The notes below the pieces were generated by a model, which was not told where the DNA came from, did not search any database, and saw only the letters and a list, made by a program, of their open reading frames with translations. DNA of 64,000 bases from a virus (Duplodnaviria > Caudoviricetes). Each line of letters opens with the position of its first letter. The first letter of the stretch is position 1. Both the position numbers and the translations under genes were made by a program. Location: the IMG/VR virus record IMGVR_UViG_3300043077_000092. One strand, 5' to 3'. Positions 29,226 through 58,938 of this stretch are shown piece after piece.

Positions 29226-30053
29226 TTATTCTACTGTATCCATAAGTTTATTTATTAACGAGTTGTAGAGATAATTCATTTGTGTAGATACCATTTCTTC
29301 CCACTCTCTATTGGGTGGGCAATATACGGGACCGATGTCCCAAACTGAGAGTAAATCTTTTTCCACATAAACCCTATTGAGCATACCACCCCACCAAAGG
29401 GTGTTATCACCTAAATCTGCCCAACTTTTGTTGCTGATTTCTATGCCGTAGTAGTTATGCCTACTACTAGCTCTAACAGACGTTCCTGATCCTGATTCAA
29501 TTGTGGATACGGACATTGCAAATATGGCATTAATTCCGTATGTCTGCTCAAGATTCATTAGTGTTTGTTCGTATCCTTCCCACCAAGTTCCCTCAGTGAG
29601 CAATTTGTAATCCTCTATATCATTTAATCCCGTGACTCTGGAAATATCGCTTGTATCGCAGACAATTGAGTTAATATAGTCAATCCTTTCTTGTCTTGCA
29701 ATCTCAAGTTGGCGAAGTCTCTCCTGCTCCTCTTCCTCTGCTATTTGTGAAGCGATTTCTTCTTCCAGAGTCAATTGTATTCGAGCCTGCTCAGCAATTT
29801 CCTGTTGTACAATAGCATCTTCTTCTACGTTAGGGATAGTAGTAGAAACAACTACTGCTGTTGATGAATTTTGGTTTGCTGAATAGGTGAGTGTTTTGTG
29901 GGTTGAATTTATTAATGGTTTAATAGACATCGTATAAGATGTCGGGTTTAATGACGATGCAAAAATAATCGACGCTAAAAGTATCAATATTGCCAAATGA
30001 TCAGTTTTGACACATGGTCGTTGTCGTTGTATTGACGCTATATAGGTTCGCAT
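29226..30053 (-). CDS. Membrane-anchored glucosaminidase (GH73-like cell wall hydrolase)
   Basis: N-terminal TM helix, coiled linker, YGINAIFAMSVSTIESGSGTS...HNYYGI...IGPVYCP. Confidence 0.8.
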   Translation of the reverse strand: MRTYIASIQRQRPCVKTDHLAILILLASIIFASSLNPTSYTMSIKPLINSTHKTLTYSANQNSSTAVVVSTTIPNVEEDAIVQQEIAEQARIQLTLEEEIASQIAEEEEQERLRQLEIARQERIDYINSIVCDTSDISRVTGLNDIEDYKLLTEGTWWEGYEQTLMNLEQTYGINAIFAMSVSTIESGSGTSVRASSRHNYYGIEISNKSWADLGDNTLWWGGMLNRVYVEKDLLSVWDIGPVYCPPNREWEEMVSTQMNYLYNSLINKLMDTVE

Positions 30054-30315: not shown

Positions 30316-31992
30316 TTAAGATCGTTTTGTCTTTAACATATCAGTCACATAGGACTGTGCGGACTGTTCATACTTCGATATCCCACCCGGGACGCTTTTA
30401 AGCAACCCTGAATAAGTGGTCACATCTCGTTCGATACACTCCTTTATGGTTTGTAACCCATCATTTGGTACTCCCGTATCCATGACGACAGACTCAATGA
30501 CCGACATAAGTGCTTTCTCTCTAGCGATACTATTTGCCGCACTTTCCAAGTTTCCGTTTAACAATCCCTGATTCAACTCATTGTGAATTGTTTCTGCACA
30601 CTGGGTAATTACTCCGGTCTCCTGTTTTTTAAGGCTAATACTTTCAGATACCTGCCCCTTGTCCTGCATAATAGTTGGGGAGCTTAAAGCACCCAAAGTG
30701 CCCTTAACATTCTCCATTGTACCAGTGCGTTGGCTGTATGCCGTAACTTCACTAAAAATCTCATCAAGGTCAAACAAAAGTTCGTTTAGTGCGTCATCTA
30801 GTGATTCGTCAGAAAGACTAAAGCTATCCATCGGTTTCTTGTCTATATCCGGATTAGAAATACTTTCTGAAGTTGAGCTTACGAATTCGACGTATTCATC
30901 CACCAAATTTGAAATACGAAGAATCTCAGTCTGACTATTAAAGACGGATGAACCATCGCGGTCAAGTGAGTTTACCAACATTGATAATTGGTCTCTCAAT
31001 TTCTCAACCGTCGTTACTGTAGTTTGGGTATCATTACCCCGTTCAATCATAATATATCTCAAAAGCATCGAGCGTATCATCATCTGCGAAAAGACGATAC
31101 TCGATACCGGACCTGATTGTCCTATGATTTCATTTAAACATTTATCAACTGAGCAAAGTACGTATATTGCCGTTTCCGTATCCATCTCAAAAAGATTACA
31201 GATGAACTGAGAAGTTGCGGTTAATACCTTGAAATTAGCTAAATTTGCAAGGTAGCATTTCGGATGATAAAACCGTCTCGAATCAAGTTCTTCTCTCGGT
31301 CCAATTAGTTCAACCATCTCAGATGGTGTATTGGGAAACCAATCCACCAGATCGACAATCAAACCACGAACGTTGAGTTTTACTTTCTCCAAATTCGGAA
31401 TGAAATCATCTAACGACAACATTGGGTTTTTAGCGACATCACTTCCTTCGGTTGAAGGGGAGTCTTTCCCCCAGCGACGGTTTATATCACTACACGCTGT
31501 TGCTATCGTGTGACTTCTATCATCGATTAGACTTTGTAACTCATTAGAGTCCAATAATCCATACCGCTCCATTGTACTCAGTATCTTCATCTCATCGAGT
31601 TGGGATACATCCTTATCAACTTCGCTCATATTAATTTGTATGTTGGCATCCGATTTAGAATTTATGGTCACATAGTCAGATAAAGATTCTGCAAGAACCA
31701 TCAGAAACGCTAACAGAACACTTGGTTCAACCAATTCCTTAAGTTCATTGACCATACTCTTAAGTTGGGTAATGCATTCATCCAAATCATCATTACCGTA
31801 ATTAAGTTTATCTATAATGGATGTTTTAATAGAAGATAGAACGACTTTTAATACATCGTTGTCTTCATTATCAAAATTCACATTTTTTGTGAATAAATCC
31901 CATATAGAGCTAATCTTACCAGAAGTTGATAAGATATCTGACTCTAATAGGAGCTCTTTTGTTGCTTCACTGTTTAATGACGACATTCTCAA
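30316..31992 (-). CDS. Hypothetical helical protein, possibly a head/virion component
   Basis: 558 aa; overlaps the end of the polyprotein gene; LLES/LAES/VIES motifs. Confidence 0.6.
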   Translation of the reverse strand: MRMSSLNSEATKELLLESDILSTSGKISSIWDLFTKNVNFDNEDNDVLKVVLSSIKTSIIDKLNYGNDDLDECITQLKSMVNELKELVEPSVLLAFLMVLAESLSDYVTINSKSDANIQINMSEVDKDVSQLDEMKILSTMERYGLLDSNELQSLIDDRSHTIATACSDINRRWGKDSPSTEGSDVAKNPMLSLDDFIPNLEKVKLNVRGLIVDLVDWFPNTPSEMVELIGPREELDSRRFYHPKCYLANLANFKVLTATSQFICNLFEMDTETAIYVLCSVDKCLNEIIGQSGPVSSIVFSQMMIRSMLLRYIMIERGNDTQTTVTTVEKLRDQLSMLVNSLDRDGSSVFNSQTEILRISNLVDEYVEFVSSTSESISNPDIDKKPMDSFSLSDESLDDALNELLFDLDEIFSEVTAYSQRTGTMENVKGTLGALSSPTIMQDKGQVSESISLKKQETGVITQCAETIHNELNQGLLNGNLESAANSIAREKALMSVIESVVMDTGVPNDGLQTIKECIERDVTTYSGLLKSVPGGISKYEQSAQSYVTDMLKTKRS

Positions 31993-34900
31993 ATCCTCCT
32001 TCCTCTAATTTCTCTGCGACCAGTTTGTCTACAATCTTTGGATCATAGTTTTTTAGTATACCGGTCTTAATAAAGATAAAGTTCTTGTTCTTTGCAAAAT
32101 AGTATGGTGAAATCATATACGGCTGTCTATCAAGAAGTTTATCGTTACCAGCGGAAATTACTGATGCAATAAACTCTGAGCAGAAATACTTATCCTCTCT
32201 GGAAGAACCTCTACCAAAGATAAAGTTTGTAAGCCCAAGTACGTTATACTTTAACTTATTTCTCTTACCAAGTAATTCATCTACAAAGTTTCTCATAGAA
32301 TCATACTCAGACGCAGTAGCCATATACATGTAGAGAGAATACCTAATATGAGCTGAGTTCTTCTTATAGATATCCTTTCTGATATTCTCATCAACCATCC
32401 CATCACCATTAAACGAAACCATATTCTCTAAGTCTGTATCAAATGACAAACTTGAATGAGCATATGGATCATGGGTGAACGCTTTAATCAGTTTTGCAAC
32501 ATTGGTTCCAGTGTAAGATAAGAAGATAAAAACAGGATAATATCTACCACCATCCTTAGATGCTTCTATATAAGTAGATTCTTCTACAGGAGTATCCTTA
32601 TTGAGTGTCATAAATAACATTGCTGGAGTTTCTTTGTAAACTTTAAATCCTCTCTCCTTGTAAACCTTCTGAGCAATCTTATTGGATTTTGCTACAGAAA
32701 GATATCTTGCATCGAAATCGTTTACTGCAATCAAAAGCATCTGATGAGATAAACCATATCCTCTATAATTAGGATTGATTTCAAATGCTTGTATCCAAGA
32801 AGTACCATCATCTTTATGCTCGACGTTTAAGTATCCGACAACTTCTCCATGGTATGTCCAGATATATCCAGAAGTTCCTTCAATCTTTACATGACATAAT
32901 CCTGAACTCTGGTCTTTGTATTTCTTAATAGCTTCAGGAGTCAAATACTCTCTTCTGAAAGAACTAAGATTTCTATGACCAAGACTCTTGTAATCTGGTT
33001 TCAATTCTGAAGTAACGCTGGTTTCTAATAAAGCAGATTCTGTAACCTGTCCTCGAAACCAATTTAGATGTTTCTCATGATCCAGATAATACTTTAAGAT
33101 ATTGGTATCTCCAGTTCTTAATGCATCCTTGAGGGAATCCCTCTTAAATCGTCGAAACATGGAAGTTGCAACTGAAGTTCCTTTAATTATAATAGGAAAC
33201 TTTTCGATATCAGGGTAATCATGAAGATGACCCGGAATCTGAACTCCTTCTACTATAAATAGGAGATTGGGATTTTTATTTGCATATCTAACGATTTCCT
33301 CAAATACATCAATCACGAGATTATGGAAATTATCTCCATTTAACGTATTAGAGGTTTTCAGTCTTGGACCAAACTTTTTACTAATATCCTGCCATAATCC
33401 ATAGTTTGGAGTCTCTGGAGAATTTGCCATATGCTCTGGCTGGCTAATCCAATCAAGTTGGAATACTTCAGCTTTGTAATCATAAGCAAGTTCATATCCA
33501 GTTGAAGTCTTACCAGAACCACTAAGCCCTGTAATAAGAAGTATATTTTTTCCAGCTTCGTGTTTCCATTCTTCCATATTGCATTGAATGTCACCCTTAC
33601 TGATTAAGTATGCTTCAAGAGATGGTTCAATTATTCCCGCACTTTCATCTACAGGTAAAAACATCTGGGTCCCACCATCTTTGGTCTTTACAGGGTCTTT
33701 AAAACCGAGACTCTTTGCAAGAGCTTCTGATTTATCATTTCCTTTATCAAATCCATACTCAATTCTCTTTGCCCAAGAGGGTTTCTTAGACTTCATAAAT
33801 CTCTTAATGAGAATTGTTGCATATCCACTTCTGCGGTATTCATCACCAGCTCGTGTTGCAACTACAATATGAGCCGTATCTCTCATCTGAGGGTGACGAT
33901 ATACCTCAATAAATGCAACAGGTATACCTGATACAACCATTACTTCACGATAGAATACGGTGTTCTTCCAGTAATTTTCATAAGGTGGATTAGAACGACC
34001 GATATATTCCCTTTCTTTATCGCTTAACGTCATTACAATATCAAGCATCTGGTTAGGGTCAGTTGTGTAATCATACACTCCATTTGTCGGTTTGTGAGTA
34101 ATCGCTTCAGTGAGTATTGCACCCATAACAGGGTAATCATCAACCCCATAAGATTCTTTAACTGGTTTCTGATCTGGCGCAGTTGCATCCATATACTCCA
34201 GAAATCTATTGACTTCTTTTAGAGCCTTCTTAGCCTCATATTTCATTCGTTCATCATTCTCATTAGAACCGTTTATAGTTCCTTTAAGAATGATCTGAAC
34301 ATTCTGAAGTTCCATATGAATACTCATCCATTCAACATCAGTCAATCTCTGGTGAAATAGTTTCTTCCTATAATAAAGAAGTAATGTATCATAATTAATC
34401 ATCGGGTCATTAAGGAGTTGGTTTCTCTTTACGAGATTAACTTTCCCATTAATCTTCCCAATAATTCCTTCAGAACCTTCCTGTATAGTTACAAATTCAG
34501 GGTCAAGGTCATCTAATTCAACCTCTTCCTGATAGTCCCATTCGAAATAGTATTTAGGGTCTTTGGAATCCCAGAATCCCTCTACCCAAACTGTAATCTT
34601 TCCAAGTAGAACTGTCGTATAGTTACGACCCATAGCGTATACAAAAAAATGATAGTCTGCATTAGGTTTTTCAACCTTATGCTCGTATTCAAGACCCGGA
34701 ACAATTTGATTTAGCATAAGTTTAATCTCATCATCCAATGTCTTAGAAAATTGCTCTTCATCTACTCCACCCTTTACTTCATACTCATCAATATGATAAG
34801 AACCAAAGTAAGTAGACCAATCCACATCAGTTGGTGCATAAGAATCCATTGTAGGTTCTAATTTCTTTTCCCACTTTGGTAAAGGACAAACATCCTGTTC

Positions 34901-35665
34901 CTTTAATCTGGATAACAAAGCAAAGAACTCAGCATAATCCTTGTTACAGATTTTGATATAGTTGACCTGATCCTTTATGGATTCCATCACTTCATCTTTT
35001 GCTTTTTCCTTTACTTTATCAACTGCCTGAATCTTTGGATGCATATTGGGATTATCTCCCCCATCTTTAAGCTCAACTTCCAGATTTAATGAACTGATAT
35101 ACACATCTGGTATATAGAAGTGCTTTTGTCCCTCATATTCATAATAATAAACATGGGGAGAGGGGGCAATAATATCCGCTCCACTCCAGAAGAGAAACGT
35201 ATCAATCATTTCTAAGAAATCACGACCATAGCTACTATCGTACATAGCTCTGTATTTCTTACCAGTATCTTCATCTTCGAAGATATAAGTGCCGCTGGTC
35301 TTTCTTCCATAAATCATCTTTGCCTGCTGTTCAGGATCATTTATGGAATAAATCTTTCCATGTTTTCCTATATAGTTTTTGCTCGCACGTTCTCTCGCTT
35401 TTCGTTTACACTCTTCACTACCACACATACGGTTATACTTACCAGTAGTCTCATTCCAACTGGTTGGAGTTTTACACTCAACACATCGACCTTCTGTCTT
35501 ACCAGTCCGCAGATAGTTTTCGTATCGTGCAGGAGTCCAACCCTCGGGGATAGATGATGCATGAGCTTTCTCAATATGATCAATGAGTGACTTCTTTGAT
35601 ACAAATTTCTTCTCACAAAGAAGACACTTTACTTGTCGTGGTCTTTGAGTTGACATATCTATCAT
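31967..35665 (-). CDS. Multidomain polyprotein: C2H2/C4 Zn fingers, PD-(D/E)xK nuclease, GNAT, P-loop kinase, GNAT, permuted papain-like (YiiX/NlpC) peptidase
   Basis: CLLC..H..H; YIPDV..EVELK; EYRRSGYA; ITGLSGSGKTS; NYRGYGLS; PYAHSS...YFCSEF. Confidence 0.75.
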   Translation of the reverse strand: MIDMSTQRPRQVKCLLCEKKFVSKKSLIDHIEKAHASSIPEGWTPARYENYLRTGKTEGRCVECKTPTSWNETTGKYNRMCGSEECKRKARERASKNYIGKHGKIYSINDPEQQAKMIYGRKTSGTYIFEDEDTGKKYRAMYDSSYGRDFLEMIDTFLFWSGADIIAPSPHVYYYEYEGQKHFYIPDVYISSLNLEVELKDGGDNPNMHPKIQAVDKVKEKAKDEVMESIKDQVNYIKICNKDYAEFFALLSRLKEQDVCPLPKWEKKLEPTMDSYAPTDVDWSTYFGSYHIDEYEVKGGVDEEQFSKTLDDEIKLMLNQIVPGLEYEHKVEKPNADYHFFVYAMGRNYTTVLLGKITVWVEGFWDSKDPKYYFEWDYQEEVELDDLDPEFVTIQEGSEGIIGKINGKVNLVKRNQLLNDPMINYDTLLLYYRKKLFHQRLTDVEWMSIHMELQNVQIILKGTINGSNENDERMKYEAKKALKEVNRFLEYMDATAPDQKPVKESYGVDDYPVMGAILTEAITHKPTNGVYDYTTDPNQMLDIVMTLSDKEREYIGRSNPPYENYWKNTVFYREVMVVSGIPVAFIEVYRHPQMRDTAHIVVATRAGDEYRRSGYATILIKRFMKSKKPSWAKRIEYGFDKGNDKSEALAKSLGFKDPVKTKDGGTQMFLPVDESAGIIEPSLEAYLISKGDIQCNMEEWKHEAGKNILLITGLSGSGKTSTGYELAYDYKAEVFQLDWISQPEHMANSPETPNYGLWQDISKKFGPRLKTSNTLNGDNFHNLVIDVFEEIVRYANKNPNLLFIVEGVQIPGHLHDYPDIEKFPIIIKGTSVATSMFRRFKRDSLKDALRTGDTNILKYYLDHEKHLNWFRGQVTESALLETSVTSELKPDYKSLGHRNLSSFRREYLTPEAIKKYKDQSSGLCHVKIEGTSGYIWTYHGEVVGYLNVEHKDDGTSWIQAFEINPNYRGYGLSHQMLLIAVNDFDARYLSVAKSNKIAQKVYKERGFKVYKETPAMLFMTLNKDTPVEESTYIEASKDGGRYYPVFIFLSYTGTNVAKLIKAFTHDPYAHSSLSFDTDLENMVSFNGDGMVDENIRKDIYKKNSAHIRYSLYMYMATASEYDSMRNFVDELLGKRNKLKYNVLGLTNFIFGRGSSREDKYFCSEFIASVISAGNDKLLDRQPYMISPYYFAKNKNFIFIKTGILKNYDPKIVDKLVAEKLEEGGFENVVIKQ

Positions 35666-35718
35666 CTCCTTCCTAAATTTTATGCTTATAAAATCCCTAA
35701 TTTATTGGGATTTAAGGC

Positions 35719-35775
35719 TTATTTTCTTGTGGAATACGGCTGAAATTAAGAATTGTGCAGGTTACATATAAATAA
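35719..35775. promoter_or_regulatory. Divergent late promoters ACA-N6-TAA
   Basis: Minus strand CACA AGAAAA TAA (35731-35719); plus strand TACA TATAAA TAA (35763-35775). Confidence 0.6.
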
Positions 35776-35792
35776 AGAAACGGGGTGTTAAA

Positions 35793-36224
35793 ATGTTAAA
35801 AAGAGAGATTGATTTTACAACGGATAAGTATAATGATCCAGTGTATTTATCAAAGCGTGACTCTGTTGCGCAACTCGTAGAAAACGCACTATTTATGAAG
35901 AAGGGCAACCTATTAAGCCACCCCGACCGATATGTCGATATTGAAAGATATCTCAACAAACCAGTTGATTCTATTGATGAGCTAAGGATATTAGCTGATT
36001 TGAAAGCAACAATTGGTGAAGATTTGGTTGGGAATGACATAAAGTCTCTCACATTCAATGTCATTACTACAGACGTTAATGGAGTTGACATGGAGGTTGC
36101 GCTAATAGTAGTCAGTTTATCAATTGATAATACTGACGATTTGATGGCTATTGCTTTACAGCGAGAAAAGGACAACGTCGTCCGCTATCAATACAGTTTT
36201 ATTAACGAAGACGTTCCGGTATAA
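35793..36224 (+). CDS. Putative baseplate wedge gp25-like protein
   Basis: Size and pattern (DF...P....KRDSVAQLVENALFMKKG...HPD..V) resemble gp25/GpW; late promoter. Confidence 0.5.
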   Translation: MLKREIDFTTDKYNDPVYLSKRDSVAQLVENALFMKKGNLLSHPDRYVDIERYLNKPVDSIDELRILADLKATIGEDLVGNDIKSLTFNVITTDVNGVDMEVALIVVSLSIDNTDDLMAIALQREKDNVVRYQYSFINEDVPV

Positions 36225-38738: not shown

Positions 38739-39059
38739 ATGATTAAATTAAATGACAGATTGCAGTTTATTGATCAGTGTGTCGCCGGTGAAAAGACTCG
38801 TTTTCAGAAACTCCTATCCATAGCAGTATTCGATGGCTTTAGTAGAAGCTACGAAATATATCGGGATTATATCCGTCAGAAGAATAACATTGATGACATC
38901 AGTTGTGATGTCGACGAAGAAATTTTAACACTGCATCTTGTATCTGGTGCACCTATGGATGATTTATTATCAGAGAATTTTCCGAAGAGAGGAGTAACCC
39001 CTGTGATAACCGACAGAGGGGTTGATTTAAACATCAAATTAATAGACAATGTGCTATGA
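38739..39059 (+). CDS. Hypothetical protein
   Basis: RBS GGAGG before ATG at 38739. Confidence 0.6.
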   Translation: MIKLNDRLQFIDQCVAGEKTRFQKLLSIAVFDGFSRSYEIYRDYIRQKNNIDDISCDVDEEILTLHLVSGAPMDDLLSENFPKRGVTPVITDRGVDLNIKLIDNVL

Positions 39060-39078
39060 AAGGAGATGTTATCATCCA

Positions 39079-40698
39079 ATGAAAATATGGTTATTACCAC
39101 AAGAAGAGTTTCAGTCACTGAATAACCTAAAGGAAGTAACAAATCCAGTACCTTTCGAGAAAGGAATGGTTCCGACTTCTGATGGTCTGTTTTCAACAGA
39201 GATATTCGGTATGAACACGTACGACAGAAAGCACAATTGGGCGTATATTGATTTAAAAAATCACTATCTCACTCCGAAAGTCTACGTTACTCTCAAAGCA
39301 TTAAACCGTAACTTTGAAGCTGTAATATACGGCACGAAGAAGTTTCGTATTGAGAATGGCGTACTCGTTTTGGATGAAGAAAATGGTGGTACAGGAATTG
39401 AATGGTTATACAAGAATTGGGATAAGATAAACTTCCAGAAGAATGACAGTAACAAAAGAAATTCCAGAATTGATATGCTCAACAATTACAAGAGAGACGA
39501 AATCTTTATTACGAAATTTGGAGTTAATCCAGCGTTTTATAGAGACGTCAATCTTCAGGGTAATTCTAGCGGAAGACCAAAGATTCCAGAAATCAACGAC
39601 ATGTATGCGGCAATTATTCGTAATGTAAAGATGATTGAAGACGCAACAAGTTTTGATATCTTGATTAATTCCGTTATAGGAAAAACCCAATCTACATTAA
39701 ACGAAATATATGACCTAATGAAAGAAAAGATTAATGGAAAGAATGGATATCTTAGACGTTCAATCCTTGGCAAATCTATCGATTATTGCGGTCGTATTGT
39801 TATTACAGCAACTCCGTATGATAATGAATCAGTGGAAGATCAGCATATCAACTTCTACTATACTGGAGTTCCATTATCCCATTGCTGTGCTCAGCTTACA
39901 CCTTTCATCATTTGGTGGTTAAAGGGATATTTCAGGGCAAACGTATTTGCTCATAAAGATCAGTTTCCTGTTCTTGATGATAAACTCAATAAAGTCTATG
40001 TTCATTTGGATAACCCTGAGATTGTTTTCAATGAGGATTATCTGGATAGATGTCTTACAAGATGGATTAATAACCCCTCTAGTAGATTTGACTTGATTGA
40101 GCTACCTATTAAAGAAGAGGACAAAAAGAAATACAATATCAGAAAGCCACGGTATCTGACGCTTGTTGGTAATAGTTACCAAACAACAACTATGGCTAGA
40201 AGAGCATATTCCACAAAAAGTATTGAGGGAGTGCGTTATATAGAACGTCCCATGACATGGACTGACTTACTTTATATGGCGGCGTCTGACGTATCAGAAG
40301 ACAAACATGTTGAGATAACTCGTTATCCGATGTTGGACTACCTTGGAACATTCATCTCTAGGGTATACGTTATTTCAACAAGAACAACTACACCAATGAT
40401 TATCAATGATAAGTTATACGAGACATATCCAGTAATTGATGTTAATTGTGCAAAGGGACGTATTGAAGCTCAATTCATCGATTCTTATAAAATTTGCCCT
40501 CTTTATCTTCCGGGTTTGGATGGTGACCACGATGGTGACCAGATTACCTCTAAGATTATATTTACAAAAGAGGCAAACGAAGAGGCAGAACGTATCATGA
40601 CAAGTAAGTCTAATATTCTTACAATCGATGGAGCAAGTATTCGTTCTATTGGTAATGAGGGTATTCAGACTCTCTATACAATGACAAAGTTTCACTGA
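39079..40698 (+). CDS. rpoC: Phage RNA polymerase beta'-like subunit (N-terminal plus catalytic), probably virion RNAP
   Basis: DGLFSTEIFG, LGKSIDYCGRIVI, ITRYPM, catalytic GLDGDHDGDQ; in a late operon; the ORF track starts it at 39049. Confidence 0.88.
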   Translation: MKIWLLPQEEFQSLNNLKEVTNPVPFEKGMVPTSDGLFSTEIFGMNTYDRKHNWAYIDLKNHYLTPKVYVTLKALNRNFEAVIYGTKKFRIENGVLVLDEENGGTGIEWLYKNWDKINFQKNDSNKRNSRIDMLNNYKRDEIFITKFGVNPAFYRDVNLQGNSSGRPKIPEINDMYAAIIRNVKMIEDATSFDILINSVIGKTQSTLNEIYDLMKEKINGKNGYLRRSILGKSIDYCGRIVITATPYDNESVEDQHINFYYTGVPLSHCCAQLTPFIIWWLKGYFRANVFAHKDQFPVLDDKLNKVYVHLDNPEIVFNEDYLDRCLTRWINNPSSRFDLIELPIKEEDKKKYNIRKPRYLTLVGNSYQTTTMARRAYSTKSIEGVRYIERPMTWTDLLYMAASDVSEDKHVEITRYPMLDYLGTFISRVYVISTRTTTPMIINDKLYETYPVIDVNCAKGRIEAQFIDSYKICPLYLPGLDGDHDGDQITSKIIFTKEANEEAERIMTSKSNILTIDGASIRSIGNEGIQTLYTMTKFH

Positions 40699-43857: not shown

Positions 43858-46179
43858 TTATTTCGACTGCGTCTTTAATGCCTCAGCATCCTTTTCTTTC
43901 TCTTTCTTCTGATTAGCCTTTGAGATATACTTATCGTTCTTATCGAACTTAGGTCTTGAACCATCAATATCAGAAAGAGCGTTGATGTATGCTAAGAACT
44001 GTTCCTCTCTAGCTTTGATATAGAGAGTGATACAATTCTTGAAGAAACGATCTACGTTCTTCTTATAAGTAACTGCTGAGTTGTTAGTCTTCTTTTCTCC
44101 GATACCAGTTTCATTGGTATTCTTATTGGCATCATCTTTATCAGTAGATTCAACTCCAGTTGCAGATACTGCATCTTTAGCATTGCCCTTTGCATCCTTT
44201 TCTCCAGCGGCTCCAGTAGCCTTTGCAGAGTCACCGATACTTGCATTGGCTCCTTTAAGACCAGCATTTCCACGTCCAATCTTTACGTCTCCAGCTTCAG
44301 TTACAATAGAACCTACACTTTCAGATACAGGTGAGAAAATTGAATTGTAGTCTGTACAGAGAATGATATCACTCTCGCATACTGTACGACCAATTAAGTC
44401 AAGATAAGTACTACCTGTAATCATAGATTCTGTTACAGGGAAACCTTCACTTGATGACTTAAATGTACTGCTGATATTCTCTGATGGTTTTGTTACAGTA
44501 GAACCATACTGTTCGATATATTTAATCATATCCGGAACTTTACCAGCAAGTTTATCACCAGTTAAAGTAACCTGATCAAGTTTCTCATCTGCTTTTCCTG
44601 TACGGAAGTAGTTAAGCATAATGGTTCTACTAGAGTCATCATTGATTTTATCAAAGGAATCAAATGAATTGATGATATCCTTTGCGAAAGATACATCCTC
44701 ATAGTTCTTAGAGGAATAAGCTTTCTTAATGGCTGAGGTGATCTTTGTAGCCATACCATTGTAATCAGCATCGGCAAAGTTTGCCATCTTGAACTCCTGT
44801 TTCTGTTTAGCCTTATCAGCTAATCCATCTTTGATTTCATCAATCCAAGGTTTGTACTTAGTAGCATCTCCCATTGCTTTCTTTCTGAAAGTTGCTACAA
44901 CGGATTCAATGATGTCTCCAATTAAAGCTTTGGCTTTACCTGCACCAGAGTTCATATCAGCTTCCAATAACCAGTGAACCTGCTTTGTATTGATAGATTC
45001 CGTTAAGAATACAGCCTCATTTACAAGAGCTCTCTGAGCTAACTGGTCATAGTAACGATGGTCAAGAATAGATGATTCCATCGCATAACTGATATAATCT
45101 CTTCCTTCGTATCCAGTATTCTGGAATACAGGAATAACTGATTCATTAATCTTATCAGTCTTATCCTCACCAGTACCGTTTGATGAGAAAAGACATTTTC
45201 TAAGAATAACACGTTCCTGTTTAATCTGGTCTCTTAATGCATTAACTCTTTCACAAGCAACCAGATTAATCATAGATGCAATCTTGTTTACCTGTCTTGA
45301 TTTGAAAGTTGCATAAGTACTAAGTACTTTCATTGAAGAGTCGTTTACGTTCTGATAGTTACTGGTTGTAGAAAACCTGTTGTTAGTGGTATCAATCTTA
45401 GCAGTATTTGCCTGCAACTGATTACCTTTGTACATCGTAGGTAATGACTTGCTAAAGAACGTCTCCGATTTGGATAGTAATGTAACAAGCTGGTCTCTAT
45501 CCTTAATGGATGATTTCTTTGTATCCTCAAGTTTCTTTGCATGAGAGATGATACCATTGACGTAAGAGTTATCAACCTTGATATCATGGGTATCCTTTTC
45601 TCCATCTCTGTAATAAGAACGAACGGTTTCCAGATACTCGTCTTCCAAGATATTATCATTGGTACCAAGGACTTCCCCTCTTAACTTGTCAAGATGATTA
45701 TCGCTCATCCAATCGATAATCTTTTTCTTAAGTTCTGCGTCTTTGAGTTTTGAAATATCATCCATATCAGAATTATATTCTGAAACGATATTCTGAAACT
45801 CTTTCATATTTGGACCAGACTTATCAAGAACAGTGAACTTATAACCATCAATGGTAAAGTCAATGGTTTTATCCTTTATAACTTTCTTTACTTCATCAGC
45901 AACCTTATCCAAGTCAGCAGATGCAGAAGTAATATAAAGCATAACTTTCTTGAAGAATTCTTTTACACGTTCAATGAACTTTTTGATTCCATCTGCAATG
46001 GTTTTGAATATGTCGGAAACTCCTTCTAATACAACGTCATATGATGCACCAGATTCCATAAGATATCCAGAATATACAAATGATTTGAATGTCTCTGTAT
46101 CAGACTCCTGTACACCGTAGATGATAGAGAGAGCTTCGCATGTCCCATCAAAGGAATCAAATTCCAATAATGCATTCAT
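43858..46179 (-). CDS. Putative internal head protein (tandem duplicated domain)
   Basis: Many x-x-E-S/A/G motifs; IKKFIERVKEFFKKV amphipathic helix shared with neighbours; late promoter at 46210-46222. Confidence 0.6.
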   Translation of the reverse strand: MNALLEFDSFDGTCEALSIIYGVQESDTETFKSFVYSGYLMESGASYDVVLEGVSDIFKTIADGIKKFIERVKEFFKKVMLYITSASADLDKVADEVKKVIKDKTIDFTIDGYKFTVLDKSGPNMKEFQNIVSEYNSDMDDISKLKDAELKKKIIDWMSDNHLDKLRGEVLGTNDNILEDEYLETVRSYYRDGEKDTHDIKVDNSYVNGIISHAKKLEDTKKSSIKDRDQLVTLLSKSETFFSKSLPTMYKGNQLQANTAKIDTTNNRFSTTSNYQNVNDSSMKVLSTYATFKSRQVNKIASMINLVACERVNALRDQIKQERVILRKCLFSSNGTGEDKTDKINESVIPVFQNTGYEGRDYISYAMESSILDHRYYDQLAQRALVNEAVFLTESINTKQVHWLLEADMNSGAGKAKALIGDIIESVVATFRKKAMGDATKYKPWIDEIKDGLADKAKQKQEFKMANFADADYNGMATKITSAIKKAYSSKNYEDVSFAKDIINSFDSFDKINDDSSRTIMLNYFRTGKADEKLDQVTLTGDKLAGKVPDMIKYIEQYGSTVTKPSENISSTFKSSSEGFPVTESMITGSTYLDLIGRTVCESDIILCTDYNSIFSPVSESVGSIVTEAGDVKIGRGNAGLKGANASIGDSAKATGAAGEKDAKGNAKDAVSATGVESTDKDDANKNTNETGIGEKKTNNSAVTYKKNVDRFFKNCITLYIKAREEQFLAYINALSDIDGSRPKFDKNDKYISKANQKKEKEKDAEALKTQSK

Positions 46180-46302
46180 GAGAATTACTCCTTTCTAAGA
46201 TTTATTCTATTAATAGATTGTATTTGGTACAAAAGAACAAAGGACAGGGGGAATTACTCCTCTGTCCTTTATTACGTGTATCCCTATTCGGGATGGGGTC
46301 GC

Positions 46303-47598
46303 TTATAATCTGTAAGCGTTTGCAACTTCAAGAATACTTGCAATTGCAGACTCTGTAGCACATTCAGCGGTATCATCCTTAGAAGAACCGCCCTTGCCAC
46401 CGTCATCAGCGCCAGTATCACCGGTATCCTTTCCATCGTCAAGGATATCATCCGGTGTATCAGATTCAATTGTACCAAGTGCTTCCGGATCAACCAGATC
46501 CTCATCAGTTGCGCTCTCGAATGCACCCTTGTTACCTTTGAAGTTGTAGAACTTCTTGAGCACGCCGAGCCACTCTTTGGCAATGGTCTTATTCATACTG
46601 ATCTGAACATTGCATGGGATCTTGTAAAGGTTCAGATATGCCGAAATAAGGCTGGATACATAAGATGCATTACGAACCTTGTTCTCTCCGCCTTCTTCGC
46701 CATCCTTTGCAGCATACTTATCGAGTTTACTGATAACTTTCTTCACATTCTCTTCATACTTTGTCAAATCTTTCTGATACGTTGTGATTTGAGAAGAAGA
46801 GTTTTTGAGGAAGTTGATCATCTTATCGATGCCGATACCCTCAAAATCCTTGATATCGCTCTTGCTGCTTGCTCCGCCCTGATATACTTCTTCCAGATCA
46901 GACTGATACTCTGATGTATCATTCGCTTTGAAATCTGTGGAAAGAAACTGATCAACTTTGTCAGAAACCGATGTCTCAGCAGATTCATCAAATTTGGCAC
47001 CAAGGGTGGCATCAATTTTCTTGTGAAACTCCTTAGTGTCCATTGGTTCCAAACCAACATCGTAATCTGCAAGCAGTTTCTTGATCACTCCGTCGACTTT
47101 ATCTTTGTCGGCTTTGGCTTTGTTGTCACCGGCTGTATAATCGTATTTGAATCCGGTATAATGGAAGTCTTTTACTTTCTTAGACTTATCCTGAAGCATC
47201 TTTCCATATCTCTTCACAAAATCTTCAGAGTTAGAGAACATGGCTTTGAACCACTCGATTACTCTCTTGTAAAACTCTCTGATCTTTGCGATGAATTTGT
47301 GGAATGCATTCTTGATCTTCTCGATTCCACTCTTGACAACACCCTCCTGAATGGAGGTAATGTATGCGTTATCAACAGTATTACCGATTCTGCTCTCATG
47401 AATAACCTGTGCAGCACCAACAACATCAGCTACCATGTAACTCATGTCAGCTTCCATAATGTCACTGAATAATGTCGCACATGCAGAAGTCAGAAAGGAA
47501 GACTCAGCAACGATACTGTTACTAAAATCATATCCCATACCAACTTCACCAGAAGGAACACTCGCACCTTCCATAATAATTGAAGCAAGGTTAGACAT
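46303..47598 (-). CDS. Putative internal head protein
   Basis: MSNLASIIMEG; IQEGVV; FIAKIREFYKRV; paralog of 47601..48668. Confidence 0.6.
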   Translation of the reverse strand: MSNLASIIMEGASVPSGEVGMGYDFSNSIVAESSFLTSACATLFSDIMEADMSYMVADVVGAAQVIHESRIGNTVDNAYITSIQEGVVKSGIEKIKNAFHKFIAKIREFYKRVIEWFKAMFSNSEDFVKRYGKMLQDKSKKVKDFHYTGFKYDYTAGDNKAKADKDKVDGVIKKLLADYDVGLEPMDTKEFHKKIDATLGAKFDESAETSVSDKVDQFLSTDFKANDTSEYQSDLEEVYQGGASSKSDIKDFEGIGIDKMINFLKNSSSQITTYQKDLTKYEENVKKVISKLDKYAAKDGEEGGENKVRNASYVSSLISAYLNLYKIPCNVQISMNKTIAKEWLGVLKKFYNFKGNKGAFESATDEDLVDPEALGTIESDTPDDILDDGKDTGDTGADDGGKGGSSKDDTAECATESAIASILEVANAYRL

Positions 47599-47600
47599 AA

Positions 47601-48668
47601 TTACTTACCTCCTTTATGTTTTCTGGCATACGCAAATGCACCAGTAAGCGCAGATTTGTACGCATGATTTCTTTCTGAAAGTGCAGATTTAGCTGCCTGA
47701 TAAGCCGAGTTCTGTGCTGTCTGCATTTTGGATAATGTAGACGAAAAAACTCTAAGGGCTGCTGACGCCTGAGCAACAGCTCCTGCATTACCCGTCTTAT
47801 CGTTGACTTTAAGGCTATTGGATGCATTATCAACCAATTTAACCGCAGCCGTATACATTGATTCGGTCTTGCTGATCGCCGTATCATATGCAGACAATTC
47901 ACTTGAGGACTTCTTAAGAGTATCGATCATCATGTTGATATTTGATGCAACAGGGAGATCTTCTTTGTCTTTTTCATCATCTGCACCACCACGCATTTTT
48001 GACCAAAGAGCCTTTGCCAGCTCGTCTTCATCGATTGATTTACCAACTAAGTCTTTGATAAAACCGAGATAATCCTCCTTGGCCTTGTCATTTAACGCGT
48101 CCTCATCAACTGCATCGTTGCGTCTCTTTAACGAAGCAGTGCGGATATCTTTGATTGCATCATCAGTATCCTTAGTGAGTGAAGTTGCCTTTTCAGCAAG
48201 CTGCGTCTTTGTCAATGCCGGAATAATCTGGCTGTAATCATACATCTTGACCTTGTAGTCCTTCAGATCGGCGGAGTTAATAGCCTTAAGATCTTTCTCA
48301 TAGGTTTTCACCCATTTCTCGTCGTTGCTGAAGATACCGGAGAGGTAACGTTTGATGTTGTGAATGAATTCTTTGACCTTGTCCTTCAAGTTAATGAAGA
48401 ACTGTCTGATCTTTTCAAACGCACTGTTTACTGCTGCCTCCATGATAGCGGAATGCGTAGCAGATTCCTCTACACTGGAATATCCTTCCATTGCGGCGGC
48501 AATAGTGCATGTATTAGGCGTATAGAAGGTAGCCTCGAAGATGTCTCTAAGAGCTTCGGCACTTTCCATAGCAATCAATCCAGCGCCGTTTTCATGATCG
48601 TAATGTCTCTGAAGGTGTCCCGTCCCAATGGACGTACCTTCCATAATCATAGTCGCCAAATTAGACAT
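47601..48668 (-). CDS. Putative internal head protein
   Basis: MSNLATMIMEG; AMES, IMEA; FINLKDKVKEFI. Confidence 0.6.
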   Translation of the reverse strand: MSNLATMIMEGTSIGTGHLQRHYDHENGAGLIAMESAEALRDIFEATFYTPNTCTIAAAMEGYSSVEESATHSAIMEAAVNSAFEKIRQFFINLKDKVKEFIHNIKRYLSGIFSNDEKWVKTYEKDLKAINSADLKDYKVKMYDYSQIIPALTKTQLAEKATSLTKDTDDAIKDIRTASLKRRNDAVDEDALNDKAKEDYLGFIKDLVGKSIDEDELAKALWSKMRGGADDEKDKEDLPVASNINMMIDTLKKSSSELSAYDTAISKTESMYTAAVKLVDNASNSLKVNDKTGNAGAVAQASAALRVFSSTLSKMQTAQNSAYQAAKSALSERNHAYKSALTGAFAYARKHKGGK

Positions 48669-48721: not shown

Positions 48722-49741
48722 TTAAACGATGGTGAAACCTGTTCCATCCATCTTGTTCGAGAAAATTTGCTTTTCGATGTTTTGCAATGAGAAACCTTTG
48801 TTGTCATTGGCAACCTGTTTCTTTGCGAGGGCACCGATATCCTCATCATTGATTTTGAGCTTGTCGGATCTTCTCCGACATTGAAGAATTATTTTTTCCT
48901 GTTTTTTAAGTATGTCCTTTTTCTGCTGTGCAGATTTGTTCGATGCTTGAACACCGAGTTTGTTGAGTTCGAGGAAATCCGCCTGCATATCTAAATAGTC
49001 AGACAGTTGTACCCTCGTTCTGTAATAAAAATAGATGAGCTCCCTTGTAATCGGAACAATGGAAACCAATGCCGTGATGACAATCCCAGTGATAACAACT
49101 CCAGTTCCAGTGAAATTTTTCCTCTGGGCATCTAACAAATAGTTCGCCATCGTTTCAAAGTGACCCACCTTAACTTCCCCATTAAATCTCTGAAGATTAT
49201 CCAACGAAATCCTCCCACGACCCTTGTCGTTCTTTGACTTAACGGTATCGTACTGAGACTGCTCGGGTCCCAATAGATAATTCATGTAGTCGGCGATAAT
49301 CATTGACGTTGCGTCGATAACCGCCATTACGATTGTGTTATAAAACAAAATCAAATAATCTTGTTTTAACTGGAAAGCTAACTCGAAAGTTGGCTTAAAT
49401 CGTTTGATATTTGCGACTGATTCTTTCACAATATCAACGTCTGTTGTCGGAACCGCATTCTTAACCATAAGTTCCGTAAGTACATCTAAACTTTCCTGCG
49501 TTGACTTGTAATATTTACATTTGGCGATATCACCCTTTGAGTCAGGAATATCTCCAAAATCGCAATCTTTTCTGTCCAATACGCTCTTATAGAGCTCTCT
49601 CACCAAGGTACCGTTTACCTGATGGATATCATCCTTATTCATACCCTGAATATACTTCTTATCTTCGGGAGTAGATGCTTCCGTTACGATAGAAGATACC
49701 TTTACAATATCAGGGTACCAACTTCTGCTTGTCATCATCAC
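48722..49741 (-). CDS. Putative virion protein with hydrophobic segment
   Basis: IVTEAS motif; GTGVVITGIVITALVSIVPI TM-like stretch; late operon. Confidence 0.55.
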   Translation of the reverse strand: MMMTSRSWYPDIVKVSSIVTEASTPEDKKYIQGMNKDDIHQVNGTLVRELYKSVLDRKDCDFGDIPDSKGDIAKCKYYKSTQESLDVLTELMVKNAVPTTDVDIVKESVANIKRFKPTFELAFQLKQDYLILFYNTIVMAVIDATSMIIADYMNYLLGPEQSQYDTVKSKNDKGRGRISLDNLQRFNGEVKVGHFETMANYLLDAQRKNFTGTGVVITGIVITALVSIVPITRELIYFYYRTRVQLSDYLDMQADFLELNKLGVQASNKSAQQKKDILKKQEKIILQCRRRSDKLKINDEDIGALAKKQVANDNKGFSLQNIEKQIFSNKMDGTGFTIV

Positions 49742-51162
49742 ATACTCCTTCCTAACATCTTCATCATGTTCTTAAATGCTTTATCATCGCTCTGATTCTC
49801 CCTGCGGAGCGTATCATAAGTGTAGGTATCAGTTGTTTCAATACCATCGAACCTGAAAGTTGCTCTCTGAGTAACAGGGTTTACAACGATATATCCGAGC
49901 AAAAAATAAACGTCCATCATTCTATTGATGATACGTTCATCGGATAAGTCATATCCATAGGTATCTCTGATATACTCGATAGTCGGCTGAGATATAACCA
50001 AAGAAGCATTTGGTAAAATGGAGTTCTTTGATACGTGAAGAGCCGATCTCGATGCATTCTTTCTTCTCTTTAATGCAGGTCTCCAACCGGTTACATCATT
50101 ACCAGCATCTTTTGCATCCATCTTAATGGTATCGATGGCAAATAAGAAATCCTTAAAGAATTTAATCTCGCCAGTTGTCCAACGAATAAAATTGAACACG
50201 ACGTTTTCATTACGCATACCTGCAACTGTCATACGGACAATCTCATCAACTGGAATTGGATGAAGAGTTGCCTTTACACCCATGATGAAATCAATCGGAG
50301 TAAGTTCCTCTCTTGTATATTTATCGATAGGATAAACTCTGATATGAAGAAGGGTCGGGACTAAGTCGTTTGCCTTCTTGCAGTCATTATCCGTGAGAGG
50401 TTTCCACTGAGCACCTCTGTCTCTAACATTCTGCTTTATAGCAGCCTGTTGTTTCGTTTCGGGCATTTTGTTTGTAACATTGACCGTTGGAGTGACATTA
50501 ACGTTGTTATTGGTTGTATGACGTCTGTCATTTACAACTGCGTTAGGACTTTCGACCTTAACATCTCCACCGCCAGTGTTGAGATTTGCAACAGCCGTAC
50601 GCTTATCGACAAACGTATCAGCTTCCATAGTAGGTGCTGAAATACGAAAACGATCGTTTAACGTATAAGGGGTTGTAACCTCTTCAATTGTATAGTTACA
50701 GCGAACGTTAATATCCTGCGGTATTGAACGAGCTACCCCTTCATAGATTGCAGTTGCCAGACGAAACGCTTCACTCTCCATTGCGGTGTACTCAACATCT
50801 GTTGACTCATTGATGAAATCGGTCAGACTAATGTGAAGACCTTTCGTAGCATCTTTCACACGTATATTCTGATGGAACTGTTTCAAATAATCAGCAGCGT
50901 TAGGTGTCTCACCCTTTGTCACCTCAAGGTAAGGTTCCATGGTAAGTACCGTCAATAAGAATGATGCGAATTTCTTTTCTGCTGCTCTTGAGATGAGCAG
51001 ACTGTCATCTATGGGAGTAGAATCATCTACCAATACAGGGAAGTTTGCTGTACCTTCCATTGCAGATGCAGAAATTGAACGTTTGGTGCTATAGATACCT
51101 GCTGATGCAGCAGTTGCTTTAAGCTCTGTTAAAGTGTCAATAGCATCTCTAATTTCGCCCAT
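49738..51162 (-). CDS. Putative virion structural protein
   Basis: 474 aa; INES/AMES motifs; late promoter at 51191-51203. Confidence 0.55.
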   Translation of the reverse strand: MGEIRDAIDTLTELKATAASAGIYSTKRSISASAMEGTANFPVLVDDSTPIDDSLLISRAAEKKFASFLLTVLTMEPYLEVTKGETPNAADYLKQFHQNIRVKDATKGLHISLTDFINESTDVEYTAMESEAFRLATAIYEGVARSIPQDINVRCNYTIEEVTTPYTLNDRFRISAPTMEADTFVDKRTAVANLNTGGGDVKVESPNAVVNDRRHTTNNNVNVTPTVNVTNKMPETKQQAAIKQNVRDRGAQWKPLTDNDCKKANDLVPTLLHIRVYPIDKYTREELTPIDFIMGVKATLHPIPVDEIVRMTVAGMRNENVVFNFIRWTTGEIKFFKDFLFAIDTIKMDAKDAGNDVTGWRPALKRRKNASRSALHVSKNSILPNASLVISQPTIEYIRDTYGYDLSDERIINRMMDVYFLLGYIVVNPVTQRATFRFDGIETTDTYTYDTLRRENQSDDKAFKNMMKMLGRSM

Positions 51163-56634: not shown

Positions 56635-58938
56635 ATGGCAAAGGAAAGTGTTTTTAGCACACCAAGACCACAGACTCAAACAGCATCTCAGATGCTTGAG
56701 AGTAAAATCAATATGCGTAATGCGCAGAGACGAAATGTAGTTGCATTGACCGAGGCGAATAGATTAGGAAACTCAACACCGGATTTTACAGCGGCATTAG
56801 AGGCTGCTAATCAGGCTACGGAACAGCAGTTACAACTCACATCAACTATGGAATCTGCGGCATACGCTCAGGGTGGTAAGAATATTGCAAAGTACCAACT
56901 TGGTATGAGACAGCGTCTCGTTCAGGAAGGTACTGAGTATCTTAGACAGAAGGTTCTTTATGAGATGATTTACGAGGCTTATTGGTTAGATGATGAGTTG
57001 AAAGACTCTACTTCAGACCAGATCGAAGAATCAATCTCTGATGTACTTGGATACATTGACGATAACTGCGAAGACTCTAAGGTTGAGGAGAGTAAGTGGA
57101 CTCCGTTCCTACAGAGCATGAAGTCTGTAATCGAGGCAACTGTAAACAAAGCAGTTACAAGAATCTGCGAAGAGGCAGACGAGACAGGCGATATCTATAA
57201 TGAGTTTGATTTAACGGATGCTGAGGAAGATGAACTTGACAATAAGTTGATTGACCTTGGTAAAGACGAAATCATTGACCTCATTAAGTCAAAAGTTGCT
57301 GATGTTGTTCAGGATGAGAAAGAAAAGGGTCAGGAACGTGCAGATATGTTCAAGGAGATCGACCAGATGTCTCAGATTGATAGCATCGAAGACCAACCTA
57401 CTGAAACAGAAGAGTCACTGGCTGAAAAATTAGCCAACGGTGAAATCACATTGGAGGGTGCTAACGTAGAGTCTCTGAAAATATATTTCAGTAAACTTAG
57501 GACAGACGGCTCCAAGACTTTAAAAGAAGCCAACAAACTGTATTCTTCCGGGCAGTATAAATTGGCGGCTGAAAGGTATAAAAAGGCAAGAGACATGTTC
57601 GCAGACCTTAACAAGAGATTGGTGGACATCGACGATTCCTTGGTATCATCAGTTGTTTCATGGTCTTACATCGCTACGATGATAAACGGGTTCATTAGTT
57701 TAATCGATACTATCAACGCTAGAGGATTTGCCTCAAACGGTGATGTTACTAAAGCCCACGATGAGTCAAGTACATGGAATAGCGTAAAACTGATGTGCTT
57801 GGCTAACGTAAAGAAGGTAATACGTTTCTGCGATACCAGAATCAACGCATCAGAGCGTTTAGCTGACGAAGAAAATGGTAAGAAGAGAGAATATAAGTAC
57901 TCTCTGGACTCAACCATCTATACAGCAAACGAACGTCGCATGGCTTCATTGCTTGAGTCTGATGCTGAGGTAAGACTCTTTGACGACCCAACTTGGGGAG
58001 AATTTAAGTCTACCGTATCCTTACTCTGCAAGAACATTAAGTCCGTATTGGAAGGACCCGAGACTCTCGGAAGAAATGTTGCTACAGACGAACCACCTGT
58101 AACAAAGTGGGAAACTGCTAAGCATTTCATCGAGGAATTGGAGAACGTCTTATCTGGTGTTCCTGAGACAATTCCGGGTGAAGTAAAAGAATTCGTTATG
58201 GGTATGGTAAATCTTATCTACATGGCAGTTCCTGCTGATGAAGTTATTATCAGCAGATTTGGAAACCCGATGGGTTCTCCTGATGTAAAATCAAGTAACC
58301 CTGCAATTGATATGATGACGGTAAGCTGGACAGATCTGTTCGTAAACATCAAGACTAATTTAAACTCTGTTAAAGGGTATCTTGATGATAAGATGAATCC
58401 GGCTGTAATTGATGACACTGATCTGAACAATTCGGATTGTCCTGTATCTGGAAGAAGTGCTCTTTCTCAGATGATTGCAAGAAACCAGTCACAGATTCTT
58501 GCAAGAAACATCGGTGGTTCATTGTTCGAGGCTATGATGATTGGTTCGATTCAGTCTTGTAGTAAAGCTGCAATGGAATCGGGAGTTGGTATCACAGATG
58601 ACGATGTGAATGATGCTGCACTTATTGAGACTCTTCTCAATTATACAGTATTTGAAACATTGGACACAATGGGTCTGTATAAGTTCAGACTCAACGATAT
58701 CAACAATGCAAAGCGTAAGTTCATGAATCCTGTTACAGAGGGAGATGTTGTTGCATCTAGTAAGGGTTCTGATATGACCAACAACAACGCAGTATCTTCC
58801 GGAAGTTCAATGACCTCTGGGAAAGATTCAAAGGGGTTAAAGAAAGTCCGTATCAATGTAAGCAAGATGAAACAAAAGAGAGACGTTATGAAGTCTAATA
58901 CACCGATTAACGCAGAGCGTTCTGTTATCAACAGTTAA
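56635..58938 (+). CDS. Putative processed head/ejection protein
   Basis: Numerous LTEA/TMES/TLEG/LLES/AMES/VTEG motifs; late promoter at 56598-56610. Confidence 0.55.
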   Translation: MAKESVFSTPRPQTQTASQMLESKINMRNAQRRNVVALTEANRLGNSTPDFTAALEAANQATEQQLQLTSTMESAAYAQGGKNIAKYQLGMRQRLVQEGTEYLRQKVLYEMIYEAYWLDDELKDSTSDQIEESISDVLGYIDDNCEDSKVEESKWTPFLQSMKSVIEATVNKAVTRICEEADETGDIYNEFDLTDAEEDELDNKLIDLGKDEIIDLIKSKVADVVQDEKEKGQERADMFKEIDQMSQIDSIEDQPTETEESLAEKLANGEITLEGANVESLKIYFSKLRTDGSKTLKEANKLYSSGQYKLAAERYKKARDMFADLNKRLVDIDDSLVSSVVSWSYIATMINGFISLIDTINARGFASNGDVTKAHDESSTWNSVKLMCLANVKKVIRFCDTRINASERLADEENGKKREYKYSLDSTIYTANERRMASLLESDAEVRLFDDPTWGEFKSTVSLLCKNIKSVLEGPETLGRNVATDEPPVTKWETAKHFIEELENVLSGVPETIPGEVKEFVMGMVNLIYMAVPADEVIISRFGNPMGSPDVKSSNPAIDMMTVSWTDLFVNIKTNLNSVKGYLDDKMNPAVIDDTDLNNSDCPVSGRSALSQMIARNQSQILARNIGGSLFEAMMIGSIQSCSKAAMESGVGITDDDVNDAALIETLLNYTVFETLDTMGLYKFRLNDINNAKRKFMNPVTEGDVVASSKGSDMTNNNAVSSGSSMTSGKDSKGLKKVRINVSKMKQKRDVMKSNTPINAERSVINS

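Follow-up and report, generated by a model that had tools for sequence, protein, structure and literature searches.

A shuffled multi-enzyme protein of an AR9-like jumbo phage with head-protease-type motifs at its module junctions, a candidate for head cleavage and injection

The 64,000-nt stretch of viral DNA analysed here (the window; IMG/VR record IMGVR_UViG_3300043077_000092, Duplodnaviria, Caudoviricetes) contains, at positions 31967-35665 on the minus strand, a single open frame for a protein of 1232 amino acids (aa), as a preliminary description of the same stretch had claimed. That description read the protein as a cargo cassette loaded into the head of the phage, cut there into separate enzymes and injected. 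The protein is, by sequence comparison, built as a cassette of modules that have been swapped, duplicated and reordered between relatives, and we judge it fairly probable that it is a virion-cargo polyvalent protein, cut by the head protease and delivered with the DNA. Modular shuffling, a (V/I/L)xE(S/A/G) motif at the swap boundaries, an S77 protease gene in the same genome and motif-rich candidate head proteins support this interpretation in part; the late promoter assigned to the gene was not borne out, and one proposed cut site (YIEAS) probably belongs to a fold. The window is the minus strand of bases 86913-150912 in a 220,062-bp record estimated to be 93% complete. This record encodes a multisubunit RNA polymerase (phrog_2986 on window 39049-40698, E 2e-88), and its gene order is conserved with Bacillus phage AR9; on its gene content, the source is a 220-kb AR9-like jumbo phage.

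BLAST block analysis divided the 1232-aa protein into seven blocks. Its modules and linkers are given below (an arrow follows the Glu of each putative cut site).

31967-35665, minus strand: whole gene, 1232 codons plus stop
34889-35665, minus strand: module A, C2H2 finger, Cys4 ribbon and PD-(D/E)xK nuclease (residues 1-259; core 35066-35110)
34484-34843, minus strand: module B, small alpha/beta domain (about residues 275-394)
34427-34483, minus strand: linker 1, TIQE396↓GS (residues 395-413; predicted disordered)
34178-34426, minus strand: module C, three-helix bundle (about residues 414-496)
34100-34177, minus strand: linker 2, PVKE504↓SY and ILTE520↓AI (residues 497-522; predicted disordered)
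33662-34099, minus strand: module D, GNAT-1 (PF00583)
33608-33661, minus strand: linker 3, PVDE674↓SA and PSLE684↓AY (residues 669-686)
33062-33607, minus strand: module E, kinase-type P-loop NTPase (Walker A GLSGSGKT at residue 713)
33017-33061, minus strand: linker 4, QVTE876↓SA and LLE881↓TS (residues 869-883)
32600-33016, minus strand: module F, GNAT-2 (PF00583)
32573-32599, minus strand: linker 5, PVEE1029↓ST (residues 1023-1031)
31970-32572, minus strand: module G, YiiX/C92-like permuted papain-fold cysteine peptidase or amidase (residues 1032-1232; His1070, Cys1162)

The enzymes named in the preliminary description were all recovered: zinc fingers with a PD-(D/E)xK nuclease (∼35066-35110), two GNAT domains (∼33820 and ∼32760), a kinase-type P-loop (∼33500-33540) and a permuted papain-like peptidase with its His before its Cys. 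Residues 11-253 match phrog_15137 'endonuclease' (E 2e-49), and D187, E196, E198 and K200 of the PD-(D/E)xK core (residues 186-200) are nearly invariant in relatives; module A is, as judged from these matches, a PD-(D/E)xK nuclease. Pfam support for its C2H2 finger (residues 13-35) and its Cys4 ribbon (C61, C64, C81 and C86) is weak, yet the Cys and His columns are nearly invariant among relatives. GNAT-1 scored 22.2 bits against PF00583 (cut-off 20.7 bits) when its segment was scanned alone, and GNAT-2 matched the same family with E 5e-15. The P-loop Pfam matches of module E were confined to the Walker A region and all fell below their cut-offs; its language-model neighbours were small kinases of the AAA_33/AAA_18/SKI type.

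Module G (the last 203 residues) gave a confident AlphaFold2 (AF2) model, with a mean predicted local distance difference test (pLDDT) score of 91. With VIA-align this model reached Z 14.3 to the B. cereus cysteine peptidase 3kw0 (root-mean-square deviation 3.3 over 160 residues) and Z 14.1 to E. coli YiiX 2if6, with PPPDE1 and HRASLS3 far behind. His1070 precedes Cys1162, and both are nearly invariant. A Pfam search with module G returned nothing at E ≤ 10. The model thus places module G as a permuted papain-fold protein, related to YiiX/C92 at the fold level only. It is almost exclusively a C-terminal end-piece of these phage proteins. In an AF2 model of residues 255-520, residues 261-505 (modules B and C) formed a small alpha/beta domain and a three-helix bundle; nothing matched them in Pfam, the PDB sequence search or the ESM Atlas, and every Foldseek match had a TM-score below 0.2. 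In the VIA-wide comparison, only generic three-helix bundles were found for module C, and module B was barely covered. PDB sequence searches with modules A, E and G yielded matches to the Walker A region or C2H2 noise only.

The family was collected in two ways. A word-indexed search found 143 relatives; with only the nuclease as query, a full phmmer scan reached 940 cluster representatives at E ≤ 1e-3 (636 at E ≤ 1e-30). Among the best 150 hits the nuclease was N-terminal in all but one short fragment, and only 5 of 124 new representatives were shorter than 320 aa. Block A (residues 1-259) occurs in almost all relatives and block G (residues 1030-1232) in most of them, the latter being the most conserved module after the nuclease. 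Blocks B, C, D, E and F are each found in some relatives only, and many relatives have module C without module B. In the middle of the chain, blocks are duplicated, reordered or replaced by other modules, among them NUDIX, metallophosphoesterase, M23 peptidase, SET, a glutamine-deamidase toxin fold, DUF362 and WDGH. Precomputed Pfam annotation adds an SNF2 helicase and HAD to the modules of relatives.

No cultured phage in INPHARED carried the fused form by tblastn, which returned stand-alone nuclease homologs only. Such a stand-alone nuclease of ∼240 aa is present in AR9, PBS1, Staphylococcus jumbo phages, Listeria LPJP1 and Yersinia phiR1-37. A pattern scan of IMG/VR gave eight loci; the two for which open reading frames (ORFs) were listed carry the stand-alone nuclease, and of the records tested, the sole one close to complete encodes an S77 protease as well.

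All linker motifs quoted in the preliminary description are present in the 1232-aa protein. Strict [VIL]xE[SAG] sites number 10, where shuffling its sequence predicts 3.3; the resulting z of 4.0 ranks fourth in the genome among all ORFs of at least 150 aa. Junctions were defined solely by the ends of BLAST high-scoring segment pairs, which peak at residues 259, 410, 510, 679, 880 and 1030. Five of the six are occupied by strict sites, six in number (Glu 396, 504, 520, 674, 876 and 1029; p = 0.01 vs. random Glu). In the comparison of relatives, the boundaries of domain swapping coincide with (V/I/L)xE(S/A/G). In an AF2 model of residues 255-520, pLDDT drops below 50 exactly at residues 395-413 and 500-520. 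One of the listed motifs is doubtful as a cut site: TYIEAS (residues 1031-1036) forms the first beta-strand of the peptidase model, with pLDDT above 90, and YIE1034↓A is therefore probably structural.

The junction signal is found across the family. In 45 non-redundant relatives, motif density was 14.8 per 1000 aa in junction windows vs. 4.2 elsewhere (p = 2e-17), and these windows held 45% of the motif sites vs. 24% of the Glu residues. When residues were shuffled within the junction segments, 34.5 ± 5.7 sites were expected vs. the 164 observed, and the control motifs (reversed, and D, Q and K variants) stayed at expectation in the junctions. The signal is thus order-specific and Glu-specific and does not reflect linker composition. 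It was replicated in 124 further cluster representatives, with 14.4 vs. 3.6 sites per 1000 aa and flat controls. A logo of all junction Glu residues, which did not presuppose the motif, showed Ser at +1, Pro at -3 and Val at -2. In relatives, the nuclease is followed by tandem clusters (e.g. LPKWE↓S-KLE↓S-ITE↓S), with a strict site in 77 of 103 sequences; upstream of module G, where linker 5 lies, relatives conserve a Glu-Ser/Ala site, and 40 of 63 have a strict site within 45 residues.

The same genome encodes a candidate for the enzyme that would use these sites, and further proteins rich in them:

G000:C1:164-1030 (genome coordinates, outside the window): head maturation protease, T4 gp21-type (S77), 288 aa (PF03420, phrog_207)
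43858-48668, minus strand: three motif-rich candidate internal head proteins (z 6.9, 2.8 and 2.7)

The protease matches PF03420 (Peptidase_S77) with 33.5 bits (27-bit cut-off) and phrog_207 with E 2e-18. Its C-terminal tail carries two motif sites, IYE205↓S and VCE243↓S, consistent by analogy with C-terminal autocleavage, which has been described for giant-phage head proteases (PMC5694885). The motif enrichment claimed for 43.9-48.7 kb was also found. Within this region, the ORF at 46303-47598 (minus strand) matches PF12699 phiKZ_IP (25.6 bits), and it shares with its adjacent paralog at 47601-48668 (minus strand) a nearly identical 10-residue leader, ...SNLA(S/T)(I/M)-I-M-E↓G. In length and in its Glu at position 10, this leader resembles the T4 capsid-targeting sequence of internal proteins. 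A search for the major capsid protein with PF07068 found none.

The highest motif z values in the genome belong to the ORFs at 43858-46179 (6.9), 56635-58938 (4.9) and genome positions 203545-206238 (4.1), followed by the 1232-aa protein. These three ORFs (minus strand, plus strand and G000:C1:203545-206238, respectively) encode ∼770-900 aa without family assignment, and their sites are visibly clustered in two of the three. From their sequences, these too are possible head proteins with multiple cuts, or cargo chains.

We infer packaging, cleavage and injection, as well as the role of the enzymes in the host, from sequence, and propose the following course. An ancestral late-expressed, virion-associated Zn-finger PD-(D/E)xK nuclease would have gained appended effector modules: an alpha/beta domain of no known family, a helical bundle, a GNAT, a kinase-type P-loop, a second GNAT and a YiiX-like cysteine peptidase/amidase. 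The chain would be made late and incorporated into the prohead. There, the T4 gp21-type (S77) protease would cut after Glu in exposed (V/I/L)-x-E↓(S/A/G) motifs of the disordered inter-module linkers. About six fragments of 12-46 kDa would result: A+B (residues 1-396), C (397-504), GNAT-1 (to 674), the P-loop module (to 876), GNAT-2 (to 1029) and the peptidase (1030-1232). The fragments would then be retained by the head and reach the cell together with the DNA.

Several observations weigh against this course. Four strict sites lie within folded modules (Glu 41, 228, 806 and 1222), so the motif alone is insufficient for cutting. The tandem E↓S cluster seen in relatives after module A is lost here, where the segment reads WEKKLEP (residues 255-275, ∼34841-34903); the nuclease would therefore stay joined to module B. 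Shared ancestry inflates the junction counts, the relatives not being independent events. The low-depth virion proteomes of BpSp and UFV_DC4 make no mention of the nuclease homolog. An N-terminal capsid-targeting leader of the type found in the neighbouring head proteins was not seen, and module A itself could serve as prohead anchor. The gene adjoins a baseplate gene and a tail location is conceivable, which would weigh against cutting because the head protease would not reach a tail protein. Finally, in SPN3US the cleavages identified, bar protease self-cleavage, all remove N-terminal propeptides (PMC10052503).

The alternative that fares best dispenses with processing: the protein would be a single multi-enzyme chain, packaged or cytoplasmic, and the motif a docking or folding boundary or a degradation signal. 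Precedents exist: N4 virion RNA polymerase is delivered without being cut, as are several polyvalent proteins of plasmids (Iyer, Burroughs, Anand, de Souza and Aravind, 2017; PMC5512222), and motif sites do occur within domains. We consider it unlikely, however, when set against a junction enrichment that is order- and Glu-specific and far above local composition, against the enrichment of the same motif in candidate head proteins of the same phage, and against tandem site clusters like those in the known multiply-cut propeptides of head-protease substrates.

A second alternative keeps the cutting and assigns it to module G, which would cleave the linkers in the head or after injection. Its papain fold, its conserved His/Cys pair and its standing as the most conserved module after the nuclease would suit such a role, and autoproteolytic domain release has been predicted for the peptidases of polyvalent proteins (PMC5512222). 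Junction density, however, is unchanged without module G (14.7 per 1000 in 9 relatives lacking it vs. 14.8 in 36 with it), and the motif is also enriched in other proteins of the genome that have no module G. That the junction motif is kept without module G and is abundant in peptidase-free proteins argues for a trans-acting protease and against self-processing in cis. The motif, moreover, fits the rule of S77/S80 head proteases, which cut after Glu, and YiiX-type enzymes are annotated as amidases with no known protein-cleavage specificity. Self-processing is accordingly decidedly improbable. The last alternative, that the shared linkers are short homology patches promoting recombination at the DNA level, could draw on the extensive module shuffling with breakpoints at linkers, but we give it next to no credence and rejected it on the codons: the sites of the 1232-aa protein differ in their Val, Ser and Pro codons and share tracts of at most about 6 nt, which places the selection on the peptide rather than the DNA, and the conserved unit, a 4-residue peptide pattern, is too short for homologous recombination.

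As putative head-protease-cut cargo, the 1232-aa protein can be set beside four known systems. With the polyvalent proteins of Iyer et al. it has in common many unrelated conflict-type domains per chain and hypervariable architectures, and delivery with the DNA is predicted in both (PMC5512222). It contains at least two unrelated, mostly catalytic domains, and its architectures vary among relatives. For polyvalent proteins, Iyer et al. list four peptidase superfamilies (zincin MPTase, assemblin-like, DD and LonC), describe a peptidase domain as common and not obligatory, and ascribe processing to the built-in MPTase or assemblin-like domains; the words 'linker' and 'head maturation' are absent from their paper (PMC5512222). 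The peptidase found here, in contrast, is YiiX-like with a permuted papain fold, outside those four superfamilies (PMC5512222); a motif for a trans-acting head protease lies at five of the six junctions, and the array is anchored on an AR9 g233-type nuclease. The polyvalent-protein theme is thus already known, and what is new relative to that paper is the papain-fold end-piece and the head-protease-type motif in the linkers. A literature search for a phage polyprotein jointed by head-protease sites returned nothing relevant.

The second comparison is with head-protease systems. T4 gp21 cuts after (L/I)-x-E and phiKZ gp175 after (S/A/G)-x-E. For SPN3US gp245, cleavage occurs after A-x-E, with Ser preferred at P1' (PMC10052503), a preference shared with the junction logo (Ser at +1). 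The protease encoded here belongs to the same family as those of T4 (gp21, S77, with its substrates IPI-III, Alt, gp22 and gp23), phiKZ (gp175) and SPN3US (gp245); also alike are a 3-residue motif ending in Glu and tandem site clusters (PMC5694885, PMC10052503). Internal head proteins ejected into the host are among the known head-protease substrates (PMC5694885, PMC10052503). The known cuts remove N-terminal propeptides or destroy scaffold, whereas here they would separate about six enzyme modules.

The third relatives are the nucleases of AR9 (g233), PBS1 and the Staphylococcus jumbo phages, annotated as 'endonuclease fused to N-terminal Zn finger domain', and g237 of phiR1-37, which are 31-40% identical over residues 10-258 and share the synteny with the baseplate-wedge gene; theirs are stand-alone proteins of ∼240 aa, whereas the one described here has ∼970 extra residues of cargo. 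Lastly, the YiiX/YaeF amidases (MEROPS C92, PF05708; PDB 2if6 and 3kw0) resemble module G in fold (Z 14) and in the order of His before Cys, but module G does not match the family sequence profile (PF05708).

A broader proposal is more tentative, and we hold it as possible, though on balance doubtful: that AR9-like jumbo phages, most of them uncultured, possess a protein-delivery platform that is both general and evolvable, in which any enzymes placed behind the nuclease and flanked by (V/I/L)xE↓S linkers are packaged, freed and injected. If so, one late gene would supply a rapidly exchangeable cocktail of host-takeover and anti-defence enzymes, a bacteriophage counterpart of the viral polyprotein. 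Should loading and cutting of the chain proceed as proposed, (i) head-maturation proteases would act, beyond propeptide trimming, as polyprotein processors that define modular cargo; (ii) the passage of large multi-enzyme proteins through the tail would be explained, as small pieces; (iii) injected effectors of uncultured jumbo phages could be predicted by a sequence rule, and the hundreds of clusters would form a reservoir of candidate host-takeover and anti-defence enzymes (NUDIX, phosphoesterase, deamidase, SET, SNF2 and GNAT); and (iv) a simple design would suggest itself for filling phage capsids with foreign proteins.

As to expression and location, the gene corresponds by position to its ortholog AR9 g233, with matches to AR9 g232 (baseplate wedge) and g231 in the ORFs next to it. 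Transcription of AR9 g233 is late: reads rise from 0.47 at 5 min to 141 at 20 min and 1092 at 40 min (supplement, PMC5312081), and 35 nt upstream of its start codon there is a late transcription start site (TSS) with AACA-N6-TA in front of it (PMC5312081). The nuclease ortholog of phiR1-37, g237, is annotated as 'phage structural protein'. Late transcription in AR9 and this annotation speak, indirectly, for a virion location. It is our conjecture that a late-made, virion-carried nuclease that spares uracil-DNA and attacks thymine-DNA would fit.

In the genome analysed here, the AR9-type late motif AACA-N6-T(A/G) places the TSS base mostly 20-39 nt upstream of start codons; late-type motifs of this form stand, for example, upstream of window positions 56635, 49738-51162, 10397-13066 and 13174. 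Of 123 genes, 25 have the AR9 early-promoter core TATATTA upstream, vs. 2.7-3.6 expected. With AR9-like late and early motifs upstream of many genes, the AR9 transcription scheme is probably conserved in this phage. For the polyprotein gene itself, the late promoter reported earlier could not be substantiated: it has only a one-mismatch motif, CACA-N6-TA at -66, with the TSS base near 35720, 55 nt upstream of the first ATG vs. the usual 20-39 nt. An exact AACA-N6-TT at -124 was considered as the late promoter and rejected, as it fails the stricter consensus.

The start codon deserves a comment. The Shine-Dalgarno sequence AGGAAGGAG runs right up to the first ATG, with 9 nt between it and the second (35656, Met4). 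Because it leaves the first ATG without a spacer, translation probably starts at the ATG at 35656. A public gene call of the same protein (1153 aa) begins still further in.

The surroundings of the gene include the following features:

35666-35792, no strand assigned: divergent intergenic region between the polyprotein gene and the gp25-like baseplate-wedge gene
35793-36224, plus strand: gp25-like baseplate-wedge gene, the divergent neighbour of the polyprotein gene

The neighbouring DNA gave no match to cultured phages by blastn. On the other side, a 558-aa ORF (30316-31992, minus strand) without family match shares 26 nt with the end of the polyprotein gene. With its motif site at Glu17 (LLE↓SD), it could be another protein of this operon that the head protease trims. 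The gene that follows (29226-30053) is endolysin-like (phrog_25820).

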